Below, in pieces: positions 5,784-59,663 of a stretch of DNA of 64,000 nt. The DNA comes from a virus, in the IMG/VR virus record IMGVR_UViG_3300033233_000019, positions 1-64,000 of that record, one strand, 5' to 3'. Below the pieces are notes generated by a model. It saw only the letters and a list, made by a program, of their open reading frames with translations. It made no database searches and had not been told where the DNA came from. Numbering within the stretch: the stretch's first letter is position 1; each line of letters opens with the position of its first letter. The position numbers and the translations under genes were made by a program.

Positions 5784-5812
5784 ATTCTACACCCGTTTAC
5801 TGATCCTGTCAA
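5784..5812 (-). promoter_or_regulatory. sigma70-type promoter
   Basis: TTGACA-17bp-TAGAAT with extended TG. Confidence 0.75.
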
Positions 5813-20849: not shown

Positions 20850-20925
20850 TGGAGCCGGGAGCGTGGGTCGAACACGCAGCCTTCTGATTACAGATCAGAT
20901 ACTCTGCCAATTGAGTTATCCCGGC
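20850..20925 (-). tRNA. tRNA-Thr(TGT), atypical C33
   Basis: Full 76-nt cloverleaf GCCGGGA-TA-ACTC-AATTGGCA-GAGT-A-TCTGA-TCTGTAA-TCAGA-AGGCT-GCGTG-TTCGACC-CACGC-TCCCGGC-T-CCA. Confidence 0.9.
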
Positions 20926-24564: not shown

Positions 24565-24952
24565 TTAACGGGCGCGTTCTGTTGCAAGGTCGCGCCCTAA
24601 CCCCTATCCGCGTTACGCCGAAGCGTAAGCGAAAGATGGTTCCACCGAAAGATGGGGAACAGTGATGGACTTGCGCCCACCCTGCCAACCTTCAATCATG
24701 GAACTTGCGATAAACGGTTTAGCATTTATCCGTTGCATGTCGTTTTAAGGTGCGCCATACTACCACCGCATTGTCCATGATCCCTGAAATGTATCCGTCG
24801 AAACCTTGACACGCCCATTATAAACAGTTGAACACGTTTTTACGGCCCACGTTTGAACGTCAATGTTTGTCTTCGTTCAACTGCTTATGGTGGACGTGAC
24901 GAGAGTCGAACTCGTGTCCGCATACACCAACAATCACTTCATACCATGCTTA
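24565..24952 (-). ncRNA. ssrA: circularly permuted (two-piece) tmRNA
   Basis: Acceptor piece (T-arm ACGAG-TTCGACT-CTCGT, CACGTCC-A-CCA ending 24888) lies upstream of coding piece starting GGGCGTG-TCAAGGTTTCGAC at 24816; G3:U70 pair; tag frame 24723-24613. Confidence 0.9.
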
Positions 24953-28842: not shown

Positions 28843-31019
28843 TTCGATCCCCATGAATCTTTGTACTCCCAATAGAGCCTGTGGCCTTCTTTTCCGTTTC
28901 TGTAGATTCCAATCTTGTCGGCCATGCGACACAACGTGTCCCACGAGCAACTTGTCTCTGCCATCAACTGCGCGTCGAAATCATCTACGTACCGTTTACT
29001 CTCGACTGCGAACACCGCCTTGATTGATTGCTCACGCTTGCTATTGCGCTTATCGTTGTTCACATCACGACTCTCGCGGTCCGCCGCAATGTCGTCGGCT
29101 GATTGCAAATTCTCTCCAAGATATTCGACCTTCGCTTGTTCACCAAGCTGCGGTAACGCTGGCATGACAAACCCAATCGTTTTGAAATCGATGCCGGGGA
29201 ACTGACCAAGATTGCGCTTGATCTGCGACATGGTGGTTATCTCATCGTTGCGAGTGAACATCCAACCCATACGAGCGACTTCACCAATCGCAGCGGAGCC
29301 ACCGATCTTATGCAATGCGTTCGCTACGCCTTGCTGTTTGTTGTGGTGGGCGATCAGCAGAATAGCAATCTGGTAATCCGCCGCCAGTCTTGACAGCGGC
29401 ATCATAATCTGCCGCACATCCTGTGTCTTGTCGCCTTTCTTGTTGCCAAGGTAATTCATCAGTGGATCGATCACGACCAACTTAATGTCGCTGTTTTCCA
29501 GAACTTGTTTCTCGATGTACTGAATGTCTTTGTCGAGATTGAGTGTGACAATCTCTCCCGGTCTGCCTTCGATACCTTGCACCATCAGCAATCGTTTTAG
29601 GTCACCATCTGCTGCCAAAAATCTTGGGCCGATGATCGTGTTGGGATCGTCTTCCTCAGACAGCAACAGCGTGGTCGCCGGATCGTTTTCATTTTTGGAG
29701 CCATCGATGAAGTCTGCACCATTGCTCAATCGAGCGGCGAAATCGAGAGCCATCAAAGTTTTACCGATGCCAGCATCACCGGAGAACACGGTAACGAATC
29801 CAAGCGGCACCCGATTCTTCCAGAGCCACTTCGTCGTGTCCATCTTCGCCAGATCAATCGTCACAACTTTGATGTGCTTCTCTGGCTCGACGACAGGCTC
29901 ATCGTCAACAGGTTGCGGTGTAAGCGCCGATTCCTTCAGTGTTGCGAAACTGAATCGTTTTCCGAACTTTGCCTCAGCCGCATCGCGGAACTGTCTCCAA
30001 TGATTTTCAGAGCACGAATTGTGAAAACAGAAATACCCCAATCCCGATGGACCAACGAAGACAGCAGCGTCTTTGTTGCCGTGCTCCGGGTTGAAGAAAC
30101 ATTCGTTGAGGACAAACTTGTATCGACCATCCGGGTCTTCTCCCTCGCTCTTAATTTCGATGCCGTAGAAATCCAGAAACGCACGCATGTGCTCTTTGGT
30201 GTATTCAACGTGCTTGCTAGCAACGAGGCCACTTCTCTTCGTGGTCACGGGAGTTATTGCCTTTGCAATCTCGACAGTCGAAGCAAGAGCAGTCAATTGC
30301 TCAAGTGTAACGCAATCCATTCCACCAACACCGTTGGCAACCAACTTCGATACGCGGTGAAATCTTTTCTGCGCCGCGTGCTCTTCCCCCTTGCGTGCCA
30401 TACTGCCGTAAGCTTTCACGATGCGTGCCGCATTGAAAACCGACTTGTCCACTTTCACTTTGTCAGTATCAAACTTCGCGGCCAGCGCACCCAAGACAGC
30501 TTTCAACAATGCAGTAACATCGCTAGTGTTGTCCAGATCAACGCGATACAGCAGATGGTAACCATTGCCAGAGTCTCCGAACAAGGGACGCGGCCAGCCT
30601 TCGGCCTTGAGATACTTGAAAATTTCAGATACCTTTTCCTTCGCAAGCGCCTTCTCCTCGTCTGAAGAACTGATGCCAGCCGCACGCTGTGGGTCAATGT
30701 CCAGCAGCAGCCAACGGCGGCGAAGAATTTGAGAGTCTTGGGTTGTCTCGTTCGCATTCTCGCGTGACTTGTTGCACGAGCGGGAAATCAGCGACGGTTC
30801 GCAGGGATTCAACGTATAGTAAACAGCGGTATAGCATTGGCCTACTTCCCTAATATCTTTTGCCAACTCCCCATGATCATCGTAGTAACCAGAAATTGTA
30901 CCAAGGTTGCGCCCGTTTTCAGCTTTCGCTTTCGGGATTCGGAGTTCGACTACTGCGCCTTCGGGAAACAGCGCAGTGATTGCTGCACGAATGTCTTCCA
31001 ACTTAATTTCTTCCGCCAT
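28839..31019 (-). CDS. primase (AEP-like)-helicase (RecA/AAA_25) fusion
   Basis: LLDID, SGNGYHL, C..H/CFH..C zinc motif, GDAGIGKT, SEED, VVIDPL, HHNK. Confidence 0.85.
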   Translation of the reverse strand: MAEEIKLEDIRAAITALFPEGAVVELRIPKAKAENGRNLGTISGYYDDHGELAKDIREVGQCYTAVYYTLNPCEPSLISRSCNKSRENANETTQDSQILRRRWLLLDIDPQRAAGISSSDEEKALAKEKVSEIFKYLKAEGWPRPLFGDSGNGYHLLYRVDLDNTSDVTALLKAVLGALAAKFDTDKVKVDKSVFNAARIVKAYGSMARKGEEHAAQKRFHRVSKLVANGVGGMDCVTLEQLTALASTVEIAKAITPVTTKRSGLVASKHVEYTKEHMRAFLDFYGIEIKSEGEDPDGRYKFVLNECFFNPEHGNKDAAVFVGPSGLGYFCFHNSCSENHWRQFRDAAEAKFGKRFSFATLKESALTPQPVDDEPVVEPEKHIKVVTIDLAKMDTTKWLWKNRVPLGFVTVFSGDAGIGKTLMALDFAARLSNGADFIDGSKNENDPATTLLLSEEDDPNTIIGPRFLAADGDLKRLLMVQGIEGRPGEIVTLNLDKDIQYIEKQVLENSDIKLVVIDPLMNYLGNKKGDKTQDVRQIMMPLSRLAADYQIAILLIAHHNKQQGVANALHKIGGSAAIGEVARMGWMFTRNDEITTMSQIKRNLGQFPGIDFKTIGFVMPALPQLGEQAKVEYLGENLQSADDIAADRESRDVNNDKRNSKREQSIKAVFAVESKRYVDDFDAQLMAETSCSWDTLCRMADKIGIYRNGKEGHRLYWEYKDSWGSK

Positions 31020-31422
31020 TCTTGCCTTTCACATAGGGATTATTTTCACCTATGCGGTTTTTGCAATAGGCCAAATAATTTGGGTAGTTCATGTTTTCTT
31101 TTTGTGTTCCCCATACCAAATTGGTTGGTATGTTGTTTTGTGAATTTTCGTCGTTGTGTAAACAATAAGGTTTACCTATTGGCGCTGGTCCGTTGAATGC
31201 TTCACAAACCAGCCGTGCAACTTTGTAAGTTTGATGATTGCGCTTGTGTCTATAAATGAAACGCTTTCCGTCCCATTGTCCAAAAGAAACAGTTCCGCCA
31301 TATGAGCGATATCCACCATTCGGCATTGCAATCGTATAAGGTACAACTCTAATCCGTCCCAAAGATGAGGCTTCTAAATTTGGGACGGATAGAATTGATT
31401 TCCATGTTTCGTTATTCATCAA
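31003..31422 (-). CDS. NUMOD4/HNH homing endonuclease
   Basis: ETWKSI...EASSLGRIR; VARLVCEAF.G...H.DENSQNN...NLVWGTQKENM. Confidence 0.85.
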   Translation of the reverse strand: MMNNETWKSILSVPNLEASSLGRIRVVPYTIAMPNGGYRSYGGTVSFGQWDGKRFIYRHKRNHQTYKVARLVCEAFNGPAPIGKPYCLHNDENSQNNIPTNLVWGTQKENMNYPNYLAYCKNRIGENNPYVKGKNGGRN

Positions 31423-32051
31423 AAAGGAATATCATCGTCCGAAATCTCGACGCTTCCTTCCTGTGGCCCGACTTCAACGCCAGCCTTTGCAGCCGAACGT
31501 GTGGTGCTGGTTGGAGCCGGAGTGGTCTTCGGAGCGGAAGTTCCTACTGAAGCATTCTTCGGAGCAGTCTTCGGAGCAGTCTTCGGAGCAGCCTTCTGCG
31601 CGGGTTTCTGATCCTTCTCCTTGTTGCAATCGCGGACGAAATCCGCAGGAATGCCGACAGCCTGATTCTTGATCGGAGCCAGAATCGTTGCGATGTTGGC
31701 AAAAATCTTGCCTTCCGCGCCTTCGTTCTGAATCACATCCAGTTGGCATTGCTTGCCGATGAGCGTCTCAAGGTCGAGCGACTCGCCGGGGTCTTTTCCA
31801 AGCAAACGCCGAACTGCTTTGAACATGATGCTTTTTTCGTGAAGCGACAAACTCATCTGCTGCATCAAACGAAATGGCCTTCCATCAGAATCGGTATCCG
31901 ACAGGATGAAGATGAAGCGGACACGATGCTTCGTGCCGTAGTTGGTGGGCTGATCGCCCAAGTCAATAACGTCCGCAAGGACAGCCTGATACAGACCGTC
32001 AGCGGGAATCTCGAAATCCTTCTGCTCTTTCTTGTTAACCACAATCGCCAT
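31419..32051 (-). CDS. single-stranded DNA-binding protein (phage OB-fold type)
   Basis: Acidic C-terminal tip SDDDIPF; position next to primase/polymerase. Confidence 0.75.
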   Translation of the reverse strand: MAIVVNKKEQKDFEIPADGLYQAVLADVIDLGDQPTNYGTKHRVRFIFILSDTDSDGRPFRLMQQMSLSLHEKSIMFKAVRRLLGKDPGESLDLETLIGKQCQLDVIQNEGAEGKIFANIATILAPIKNQAVGIPADFVRDCNKEKDQKPAQKAAPKTAPKTAPKNASVGTSAPKTTPAPTSTTRSAAKAGVEVGPQEGSVEISDDDIPF

Positions 32052-32094: not shown

Positions 32095-32123
32095 ATTCTA
32101 GCACAGGTGCCGCTCCGTGTCAA
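32095..32123 (-). promoter_or_regulatory. sigma70-type promoter of the replication operon
   Basis: TTGACA-17bp-TAGAAT. Confidence 0.75.
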
Positions 32124-32127
32124 GGAT

Positions 32128-32302
32128 AAAAGTGCAGTTGCGGTGAGGAACCCCGGAAGCAAATCGTCCGAAGAGCTTGGTGGAATACCCTCTGCCGGGT
32201 AGCATATGACTCCGGTCAGTTCTCTCCCATATTCAGTCCTGCTCCTCCACCGACCAACGATTGAAGTCTCGCCGTGCGTGGATTCTCCTCCGTAACTGCA
32301 CT
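32128..32302 (-). ncRNA. ~175-nt rod-shaped small RNA, 6S-like candidate
   Basis: Own promoter (32308-32336); 5' AGUGCAGUU pairs with 3' AACUGCACU followed by a U-run; nested internal helices. Confidence 0.6.
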
Positions 32303-32307
32303 CACAC

Positions 32308-32336
32308 ATCCTACTCCCGATCCTGCATTCTGTCAA
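32308..32336 (-). promoter_or_regulatory. sigma70-type promoter for the small RNA
   Basis: TTGACA-17bp-TAGGAT. Confidence 0.7.
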
Positions 32337-32399
32337 GAAGAAATGAGATTTGTTGAAAACAAAGCACATCTTTAGAAACCCACACCATATACTAACTAT

Positions 32400-32720
32400 G
32401 ACTAACGAAGTACCGCCCGGATCACCCGCTAACCCTGAGTACACGCTTAGGTATCCGTTAGCCGCACGGATCGGGTGTAGTGGACGGTATACTTAGAGGC
32501 TGTTAGCAACCCATTAGCCCGATTAGTCGCGTAAATTGTTGATTACAAATATATATGTCAACTGTCTGTTAACTGTTAATTCCGCGCAAAATTCAAAGTT
32601 ATTGAAAACAAAGGAGTTATGCGACAAACGCTTATTTTGGCGTTAAAAGTCCTTTGTTTTCAAAGCTTTACCCGGAAAGTATTCGGCGGCTATCAAGTTG
32701 TTGAAACAAAAGAAATAAAA
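32400..32720. other. AT-rich divergent intergenic region with IHF-consensus sites and TTAG motifs (candidate origin)
   Basis: WATCAANNNNTTR matches at 32532-32544 (minus) and 32691-32703 (plus). Confidence 0.45.
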
Positions 32721-32723
32721 GTG

Positions 32724-32752
32724 TTGACATTTGATGCAATTTAGTTTACAAT
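32724..32752 (+). promoter_or_regulatory. sigma70-type promoter, leaderless mRNA
   Basis: TTGACA-17bp-TACAAT; ATG 6 nt downstream. Confidence 0.7.
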
Positions 32753-32758
32753 GTAAAG

Positions 32759-33322
32759 ATGAGAGAACTTCGACCCGGAATCGATTATCTAACTGAAGGC
32801 AACGCTGGAATAAGATACAATCGGCGGCGTGCTCAAGAAGCAAAAGAATTGAGTAAACCTAAGAAAATAAAAACTTTGGCAGCAGTCTTGGAAGACTTCC
32901 ACAATAGAGCCAAAGACCAGACCAAACGACTAGGCTTGCTTCGATATATGACAACTATTATACTAAAAGAGGTTAGTTTAGAAGAACTTACAAGGAAAAG
33001 AAAAAAATTCGACGAGTTCAAAAACGATATTTTCCCTTTGACTGAGGATTGGTGCTGGTTGTGTAATAAGCAGTTAGCCACGATTAGGCACCACGTCATA
33101 CTGCTGAGAAACGGCGGTCCTGAACTGGCGAAGCCTAATGTTGTTTTGCTGTGTCAAAATTGCCATAATGTCATTCATCCGTGGTTGCACGAGTCGAACG
33201 TATCACAATCGGAACTTACAAGGATTATTGATGTTTTCCAAAAAGCAAAAGAAGGAAAACTGTCTAGGAGTCAGGCAGAAATTGAGATGTCTATAATTTT
33301 CGACGGTCTTTTTGCGATCTAA
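32759..33322 (+). CDS. HNH endonuclease
   Basis: CWLC...HHVILLRNGG...NVVLLCQNCHNVIH. Confidence 0.8.
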   Translation: MRELRPGIDYLTEGNAGIRYNRRRAQEAKELSKPKKIKTLAAVLEDFHNRAKDQTKRLGLLRYMTTIILKEVSLEELTRKRKKFDEFKNDIFPLTEDWCWLCNKQLATIRHHVILLRNGGPELAKPNVVLLCQNCHNVIHPWLHESNVSQSELTRIIDVFQKAKEGKLSRSQAEIEMSIIFDGLFAI

Positions 33323-33543
33323 ATAATTATTTTTCCTTTATTTTCAACAACATAACTTGTTTACTAAGGAATCACTGTGGTATAATAGTACTATACACAA
33401 ACGATGGGAACTAACGCTTTAACCGGGCCTCCTCCTGCTGGCTCCCGCCAGTACCCGGTCTTAGGGGCTAGCGAACACCGTCGTCAGACGGGATCAAGTA
33501 GTTAGCCCCAATATCGTATATTAGAGGAGTCGTTGAAGGCCGA

Positions 33544-58800: not shown

Positions 58801-59663
58801 GAACTGGAACGTCAAACAATCCTATCCAGAGTGCTCAACCGTTTATCTCTGGTATTGGTCTGCTGAGTTACAACGCTTTGGCGCTCAAGGGAACAACGAT
58901 TGGCATGTTCACTACGGACAAGCAATTCTTGATCCTTGACCCGACGAGCGGCGTTTCAATCGCTGGATTCCCAATCGGTGATCGTCTTCGCAAGAACAAC
59001 GGTCAGCCGGGAACAGCATGGAACCCTAAGAATGTGTATGTGACGTGGCACGCTAACGGCGAAGACCACGCATGGTATCTTTCGGATGGAGCGAACGGTT
59101 GGTACAAACTAATCGACACTCCTGCTCCTGAAGACCCCGGACACTACACATGGTCGCCATTCGCTAACATCGTTGGCGGTTGCAAGGCTGTCTTGAGTAT
59201 CGAAGTTAGTCCCGGTGTTCACGAATTGTTGCTTGGCCCAACAGGGTCAGGAGAGATTCTGCACAGAGACTTGACTACATTCACGGACGGTGCAAGCAGC
59301 ACGTATGGCGCTTGGGCGGTTATTGGTTCGGCTGTGTTAGCACAACCGGGTCAAGTTGCCGAAGTCATGTTTATCACAACTGAGTCAGTTCGGACTGGTA
59401 CTTCGCTTACGTTGGGAATTTTGGTTGACGAAGCGTTACCGTACTACACTGGCCCATTTGAAATATTGAAAGTTTGGGAAGACGATCCTACGGGTATTCC
59501 ACCAAGCCGTTCAATATTTGGTCAGAGATTCTACATGTCAGAATCGAAAGACAAGCCAGCAATTTGCCGCCACATGCAGTTCCAGATTAATTGGGTGAAG
59601 GAAGAAGTAGCAAGCGAACTTCTGACGCTCACAGTATTCGGTGCGTACAACCAAGAAAGTTAA
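55848..59663 (+). CDS. tail tubular B / nozzle protein with inserted PA14-like and Trp-repeat modules
   Basis: N-terminal L.RRPG; LYFANG; RIFFS..N.VYWTS; PA14-like GQYTFALNHHDG...GDYPFEIDY. Confidence 0.7.
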   Translation: MPNQIGLSGGQPQKQTRFAPLYTGRWSSGLWTNRSPLRDGNTSRIVEKFYGAAGDALIDGLNVEITNRLTLARRPGNPVFDSNTYTGVDNIQAFSMFSPTTEQIDVMIDEANQLSSLFGGVKSLVWNKSVGAGQTYMQPVGNSLYFANGIDNKKWLQSLVTWAASTQWNGPTSPYMTTFLIDSNGNIQQLTACIIGITSTTVASGVLTVTATETLQPGGLLSDLVTPGLQVKFPAALAATTLQGLIVTVDTVSGLTFTAKVTLANYASTPETAKTMNVFGGFPVSGVGVPTWSTTPLTPGMATPSDALTLDGTVQWTNRGTPVENWGIKPPTTTMPKPGLNSSRVAWNTNTFYSNPGVIIDANGNIQLVTIDGISGASVPTWGTNVNDLTVDGGVTWKLIQKAPLGWAAGTAYTPGVFVTGATAGTGTCLFRLRAFSQPLLKNGNIDVWTWNHDHSRGVGSFALLAPVVAGVSNAGTHTTTNTYVGHATVNCISKTTPVSSSPGNGDDGFWDQQSNAGEWVSNSRIYAPHADTSSVISGTLTVGVPGQYTFALNHHDGCFIGFGGGATKVSGVLIDDAAVSPARTTTAMFGYPIFGGTDTGLSGNAIWNDTVTVNFPVAGDYPFEIDYAYWYHSSSHTEQPVMKGAPNSEVYMEMVCNGKTIIPTTPVSGATQPIWPDWTTAFAAYDSTANDTKYPTVTDASGTMVWENLGPVTDYVWVATTTFTLPNQIIIDPNGNQQAPYRTGVTGSDASTEPSVWATGIGQLTNDNPNLIWICHGGASSSALGGTLSTFSDQGWEYCIALVNTLDNTVSNCGKLSVGTGKIIGAKSLNFAAGDGLPPASQIDPQVDYVAIFRTTDGLGVPFLIPGLENNTFYTISLAEYLANGYSDTTPDTSLDNLIQGPISGENTPPAGGAQNLTYHLNRIFFSVGNVVYWTSGPDDPIGNGLNGVSPLNFDQLPSLVKRIVPTGLGALVFTVSDIFIINGTGTSNNPIQSAQPFISGIGLLSYNALALKGTTIGMFTTDKQFLILDPTSGVSIAGFPIGDRLRKNNGQPGTAWNPKNVYVTWHANGEDHAWYLSDGANGWYKLIDTPAPEDPGHYTWSPFANIVGGCKAVLSIEVSPGVHELLLGPTGSGEILHRDLTTFTDGASSTYGAWAVIGSAVLAQPGQVAEVMFITTESVRTGTSLTLGILVDEALPYYTGPFEILKVWEDDPTGIPPSRSIFGQRFYMSESKDKPAICRHMQFQINWVKEEVASELLTLTVFGAYNQES

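Follow-up and report, generated by a model that had tools for sequence, protein, structure and literature searches.

A candidate end-clamped structured RNA, stand-alone or leader, upstream of the SSB-like gene of an uncultured sediment phage

Genomic context of the element

The candidate RNA described here is encoded on a 98,912-bp IMG/VR virus record that was recovered from a sediment metagenome and represents an uncultured phage; the window that we analyzed comprises its first 64 kb (64,000 nt). The element sits in a 708-bp gap between the gene at 31419-32051 on the minus strand and an HNH endonuclease gene at 32759-33322 on the plus strand, and this gap is the point at which the genes switch strand (Table 1). 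Over the whole genome, the cumulative GC skew reaches its lowest value at this intergenic region (~32 kb) and its highest near ~88 kb, which makes the region a candidate replication origin by a signal that is confounded by transcription direction. Both the minimum and the maximum coincide with gene-strand switches.

The phage appears to have no close cultured relative: blastn against GenBank phages gave no match, and tblastn of the primase-helicase and the SSB-like protein against the same phages returned remote matches only (at most 32% identity). The leftward gene had originally been labeled an SSB gene, and this label is reasonable because the family of its 210-aa protein ends in an SSB-type acidic tip, DDDIPF, and because an HNH gene and then a primase-helicase gene follow at its 3′ side. 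A profile search of the family against PDB gave no match. The HNH_3 endonuclease gene in this operon (31003-31422) is replaced by unrelated sequence (L002:762-1312) in L002, a metagenome contig whose SSB-like protein is 90% identical to that of the phage, while the SSB and primase-helicase flanks align. Therefore, this endonuclease gene is likely to be mobile.

Table 1. Positions of the candidate RNA and of the features around it (window coordinates; L002 is the related metagenome contig).
Feature	Position	Strand	Remarks
SSB-like gene	31419..32051	-	210 aa; C-terminal DDDIPF tip; PHROG 862 (function unknown); no Pfam family
P2, sigma70-type promoter with extended -10 (TG)	32095..32123	-	TTGACA-17-TAGAAT; 43 nt before SSB-like start codon
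U-rich tail between helix and P2 -35	32124..32130	-	UUUUAUC; varies in L002 (UUUC-UC)
Candidate structured non-coding RNA, ~175 nt	32128..32302	-	Fold prediction; 32129-32230 identical in L002
Closing helix, 3′ arm	32131..32153	-	GGGUUCCUCACCGCAACUGCACU; inverted-repeat analysis; identical in L002
Closing helix, 5′ arm	32280..32302	-	AGUGCAGUUACGGAGGAGAAUCC; inverted-repeat analysis
P1, sigma70-type promoter	32308..32336	-	TTGACA-17-TAGGAT; predicted +1 at 32301/32302
Dyad motif copy, 15 nt	32350..32364	-	CTTTGTTTTCAACAA; centre ~-55 from P1 start; putative operator
ORF, 35 aa	32205-32098	-	GGAG 4 nt before ATG
ORF, 121 aa	32444-32079	-	Open frame on P1 strand

Host-type promoters on both sides of the element

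Two consensus promoters reading towards the SSB-like gene had been proposed in the original prediction, one on each side of the element, and both are present as described, P2 with an extended TG in addition. P1 gives a 10/12 match with a 17-nt spacer, and the candidate thus has a promoter of its own, as expected for an sRNA gene. Its canonical +1 falls on G32301 or A32302, so that the closing helix starts on the first transcribed base, again as proposed.

Both promoters belong to a larger set. The pattern TTGACA-N16-18-TAnnAT (also given as TTGACA-N17-TAnnAT) occurs seven times in the window compared to 0.35 expected copies (20-fold), none of 100 shuffles reached seven, and the whole genome contains ten copies. 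Most copies lie 7-43 nt before a start codon. Because the pattern is enriched and mostly placed just before start codons, these sites are very probably the promoters which the phage offers to the host polymerase. The TAGGAT hexamer of P1 also serves as the -10 element of a promoter at 1568-1596, directly 5′ of a gene. P1 itself is the exception in the set, as it is followed by 175 nt of non-coding DNA and then by P2.

A closing helix clamps the ends of the predicted RNA

The first 100 nt of the candidate RNA are G-rich (36 G vs 18 C), and its two ends are complementary. The original prediction had paired AGUGCAGUU with AACUGCACU; this pairing holds up and can be lengthened to 23 nt, and the first 12 pairs of the helix reach probabilities of 0.75-1.0 in the predicted ensemble. 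Over its 23 positions the closing helix contains 18 Watson-Crick and two G-U pairs. When the dinucleotides of the 800-nt region are shuffled, 0.1% of the shuffles give an inverted repeat as good as this one, and the clamp is the single inverted repeat of the 98.9-kb genome with at least 18/23 pairs at a spacing of 60-250 nt. With a tetraloop replacing the inner domain, the clamp alone is predicted to contribute -18 to -27 kcal/mol.

The complete RNA folds into a Y-shaped minimum free energy (MFE) structure of -62.5 kcal/mol with a z score of -2.0 relative to shuffled sequences, and the opposite, plus strand folds no worse (z -2.5). Off-register windows of 180 nt which miss either arm have z scores of 0 or above; therefore, the fold signal comes from the clamp and not from the interior. 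Of the nested helices that had been drawn inside the clamp, CGG/CCG is strongly predicted at pair probabilities of 0.96-0.99, whereas AAUCGUU/GACGAUU (~0.02) and GGUGGA/UCCACC (~0.12) are minor in the ensemble. The long rod into which these helices had been assembled lies 3.8 kcal/mol above the MFE when enforced. Because the sole relative is identical over its 102 nt and offers no covariation, the structure that we describe is an energy prediction.

Comparison with 6S RNA and other RNA families

The original prediction went on to read the rod as a possible phage mimic of bacterial 6S RNA (SsrS, RF00013), which would bind the host sigma70 holoenzyme as an open-promoter decoy. The candidate resembles 6S RNA in its size (~175 nt compared to ~180 nt) and in its ends, which are paired in a 23-nt closing helix with 20 pairs, and its placement at an early control region would suit such a role. 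In E. coli, 6S RNA is transcribed from tandem sigma70 promoters and is co-transcribed with a downstream gene. However, covariance models for RF00013 and all of Rfam gave no match at E<=10, either in 3 kb around the element or in 731 nt with lax filters, and this includes the riboswitch, aptamer and leader families. Across the region and the whole window, no Rfam family covers the element. Neither RF00013 nor any other 6S model matched elsewhere in the 98.9-kb phage, and the same RF00013 search was positive in 7 of 14 control genomes. Moreover, the predicted fold is branched and no covariation supports any rod. A large two-sided central bubble is absent from both the MFE structure and the rod, whose longest unpaired runs are 8 and 7 nt, respectively (quoted range 6-8 nt), and by the original prediction's own criterion of a central bubble this speaks against 6S RNA. 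Judged by these models, the element should not be filed as a 6S RNA, and we regard a decoy of the 6S type as very improbable.

The 3′ end and a possible leader function

Where the candidate RNA would end is less clearly marked than where it would start. The U residues proposed to follow the helix are there in so far as the tail, UUUUAUCC, is U-rich, but it is short and reads UUUC-UCC in L002; five U in the 8 nt after the clamp are common to the window and L002, while the sequence itself is not kept. A search for a canonical terminator hairpin at the 3′ end of the candidate RNA found none, and canonical terminators are few anywhere in the phage. The tail abuts the -35 element of P2, which places the P2 polymerase site 4 nt downstream of the candidate RNA, and a polymerase bound there could interfere with transcription from P1. 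Because of P2, the RNA had been called a separate unit rather than a leader. P2 does exist; the separateness was deduced from it rather than observed.

A cis-acting function also has to be weighed. Transcripts from P1 could read through into the operon of SSB, HNH and primase-helicase genes, with the 175-nt domain as a 5′ leader module that stabilizes the mRNA, offers an RNase III-type site in its 23-bp imperfect duplex or acts as a conditional terminator; the domain would then modulate what P1 adds to the constitutive output of P2. The missing canonical terminator between P1 and the gene and the poorly conserved tail fit this explanation, as does the predicted fold of the 263-nt read-through transcript, in which the domain is unchanged and independent of the P2 leader. 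Phage RNase III sites are comparable in size to a ~20-bp imperfect duplex such as the one found here, and the SSB gene of phage T4, gene 32, provides a precedent with its tandem promoters and structured upstream leader. On the other hand, transcripts that start at P2, downstream of the domain, would not contain it, and these would account for most SSB mRNA. Complementarity between the domain and the ribosome-binding region of the SSB-like gene was not seen, and riboswitch or leader families did not match, as noted above. Overall, we consider a pure leader function unlikely, yet the most serious of the alternatives.

Conservation in one relative and narrow distribution

A search with the SSB-like protein identified 29 relatives, including five (P0003-P0007) at 63-71% identity. 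Scans of metagenomes and IMG/VR yielded 93 loci, of which only L002 reaches the element; the contigs of P0003-P0007 are not among these loci. L002 ends inside the element, and the comparable part is 32129-32230. Over these 3′ 102 nt, L002 and the phage do not differ at a single position (0/102). By comparison, 9.2% of the sites in the SSB coding sequence differ between the two, including 19 of 94 fourfold-degenerate sites (20%), and the probability of 0/102 changes in a neutral stretch would be ~1e-10. Five changes are located in the 17 nt of tail and P2 spacer between the helix and the P2 -10 element, two of them in the tail (one is a 1-nt deletion) and the other three in the spacer; no change is seen in the P2 hexamers or the 5′ UTR. 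Sites that are expected to be free thus vary right beside an unchanged element, which fits selection on the sequence of the element. In principle, the identity could instead reflect a recent recombination tract or a function or constraint at the DNA level.

The same comparison bears on whether the stretch encodes a small protein, either of 35 or of 121 aa. On the P1 strand neither frame is interrupted, and nucleotide-perfect conservation would be compatible with coding. However, in L002 the 1-nt indel throws either ORF out of frame before it ends, and there is no synonymous-type variation at all. In addition, the ORFs cross P2, or both P1 and P2, and the short Shine-Dalgarno spacing of the 35-aa ORF lies within a predicted hairpin. 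No relatives of these ORFs were found, and for the 121-aa ORF this covers Pfam, PHROGs and the protein collection. Because the deletion shifts both ORFs and the longer one lacks relatives, it is unlikely that the element codes for a protein, and we give the small-protein explanation hardly any credence. The notion of a non-coding, structured RNA unit driven by P1 is plausible in view of the 102-nt identity and the ORF-breaking indel; what falls away from the original prediction is the 6S identity.

Beyond L002, the element is difficult to find. SSB relatives at 47-57% identity (L003, L005 and L013) lack it and have a single promoter directly before the SSB gene. A covariance model of the element had no match in 113 related or motif-sharing loci, blastn and nhmmer over the fetched loci recovered no copy other than that in L002, and exact-pattern scans with pieces of the element in IMG/VR and a prokaryotic genome collection returned nothing. 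Contigs from four DNA runs span the SSB gene as well as parts of the operator region and leave 32137-32337 uncovered; they have no bearing on presence or absence. No RNA run containing the stretch was found. The element is single-copy in the genome and, as far as these comparisons reach, appears to be a narrow, lineage-specific addition.

A dyad array next to P1 and functions at the DNA level

The intergenic gap also carries a repeat array. The 15-nt dyad CTTTGTTTTCAAYAA is present in five copies in the gap (32350-32712) and in a sixth at 33337-33350, and nowhere else in the genome. Two copies have their centers at about -55 relative to a promoter start, one to that of P1 and the other to that of the diverging promoter P3 (32724-32752); P2 has no copy. 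The same 18-mer occurs upstream of the SSB homologues in L005 (1381-1476) and L013 (914-1075), within tandem units of ~78 nt, whereas a scan of IMG/VR with the operator 18-mer mostly hit an unrelated coding region. The array is probably an operator or iteron array. Its geometry is suggestive of a common switch for P1 and P3 that does not include P2, and since P1 and P3 share the dyad at the same distance, a phage DNA-binding protein would probably control the RNA along with the rightward arm.

A second long-range inverted repeat lies next to the candidate RNA. At 32305-32485, two 13-nt arms (32311-32323 and 32468-32480, 92%) enclose the P1 -35 element and the first dyad motif. This unit folds with a z score of -3.66 on the plus strand (0/200 shuffles) and -1.64 on the minus strand, and it shows no homology to the candidate RNA.

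Such surroundings raise the question of whether the element acts as DNA, either as part of an origin or control region or as the relic of a small insert with terminal inverted repeats, in which case the RNA would be incidental. The element lies at the GC-skew minimum and strand-switch point of the genome, adjoins possible iterons directly upstream of the replication genes, folds equally well on both strands, is present in some relatives and absent from others, and is flanked by a 13-nt direct repeat, TTTnTnCTTGACA. At 55% GC the stretch is too GC-rich for an unwinding element, and it is single-copy, with no copies in the exact-pattern scans of viral and prokaryotic collections. Furthermore, the helix lines up precisely with the predicted transcription start and with the U-rich tail, and it does so on the P1 strand only. 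Together, these observations make an element acting purely as DNA rather improbable. We also considered a MITE-like mobile element, for which the inverted repeat would speak, and rejected it on the single copy and the viral and prokaryotic exact-pattern scans.

A tentative model for the P1 transcript

Taken together, the ~175-base non-coding stretch probably specifies a small structured RNA or an RNA leader of a new and narrowly distributed kind, and a new orphan phage RNA, whether stand-alone or leader, is plausible. The explanation we tentatively prefer, while holding it somewhat short of an even chance, is an end-clamped RNA of ~170 nt which is driven by P1 and released by partial termination and/or processing, with read-through into the replication operon. 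The host sigma70 RNA polymerase would transcribe a 175-nt structured non-coding RNA from P1, in which the 23 nt at either terminus pair with each other and thereby clamp both ends of a branched inner domain. The clamp together with the pyrimidine- and U-rich tail would serve as a partial terminator, an RNase processing site or both, so that a discrete, nuclease-protected RNA of ~170 nt would accumulate early in infection. Transcripts that escape would continue through P2 into the SSB and replication operon, and P2 would provide SSB expression that is independent of the operator.

The promoters, the closing helix, the interrupted reading frames and the conservation in one relative are the observations; that the stretch is transcribed, where the RNA ends, that it is stable and co-regulated and any role in trans are our inferences. 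Against the model stand the modest z score of the fold, which is blind to strand, the short tail that is changed in L002, the single, partial and identical relative and the SSB relatives at 47-57% identity which do without the element. A search for antisense targets within the phage returned only one 16-nt identity, GGGTATTCCACCAAGC, between 32175-32190 (minus strand) and 59492-59507 (plus strand), the latter on the sense strand of a 1271-aa late ORF; this sense-sense match (E 0.01) does not extend and is possibly due to chance.

A bolder version of the model is a long shot. The clamp-ended RNA could represent a new class of phage regulator at the master divergent control region, acting either as a decoy, functional rather than homologous, for host machinery such as sigma70 RNA polymerase or as a ligand- or protein-gated clamp terminator that meters P1 transcription into the replication operon.

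Related phage RNAs

Early mRNAs of phages are known to carry structured leaders and RNase III sites, for instance the gene 32 (SSB) leader in T4 and the R-sites in T7. The candidate shares with these a structured element of ~20-bp imperfect duplex in front of an SSB gene with multiple promoters. In contrast to T4 gene 32, no pseudoknot or A/U-rich operator was identified, and P2 separates the candidate from the gene.

By analogy, the nearest functional counterpart may be the “6S RNA” of phage lambda. According to a recent study, this is the 194-nt promoter-proximal transcript of pR′ that ends at tR′, and it is described there as occurring in processed, Hfq-bound form with a possible sRNA role; the same study reports no sequence similarity to bacterial 6S RNA (10.1101/2024.10.31.621285). 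Like the lambda transcript, the candidate would be a short phage RNA that is made from a strong host-type promoter and ends before a downstream operon, with read-through possible, all of which is predicted here. Unlike lambda, which has a canonical terminator, Q antitermination and late genes downstream, the candidate has a second full promoter, a 3′ end formed by a long-range clamp and replication genes downstream.

Small RNAs encoded by phages are still poorly catalogued, and an RNA of this kind, conserved, clamped at its ends and encoded where the two transcription arms of an uncultured 99-kb phage meet, would be a candidate for an early regulator. If this were confirmed and binding to a host machine demonstrated, it would represent a novel means of host takeover by a phage. 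At present, the candidate is an orphan with one partial relative, and its value is that of a lead.

Other RNA features of the phage

The Rfam search of the window reached the gathering level for a permuted two-piece tmRNA at 24696-24948 (minus strand, 56 bits) and a tRNA-Thr at 20853-20925 (minus strand); hammerhead families did not reach the threshold anywhere in the window. Another leader-like stretch is found at 18178-18320 on the plus strand, where a consensus promoter is followed by a GC-rich leader of 107 nt with a tRNA-like appearance, without an Rfam match at E<=1, and then by a 121-aa ORF. Finally, for the promoters at 32724-32761 and 5784-5812 the predicted start coincides with the ATG of the first gene or lies within ~2 nt of it, and both promoters are likely to give rise to leaderless mRNAs.
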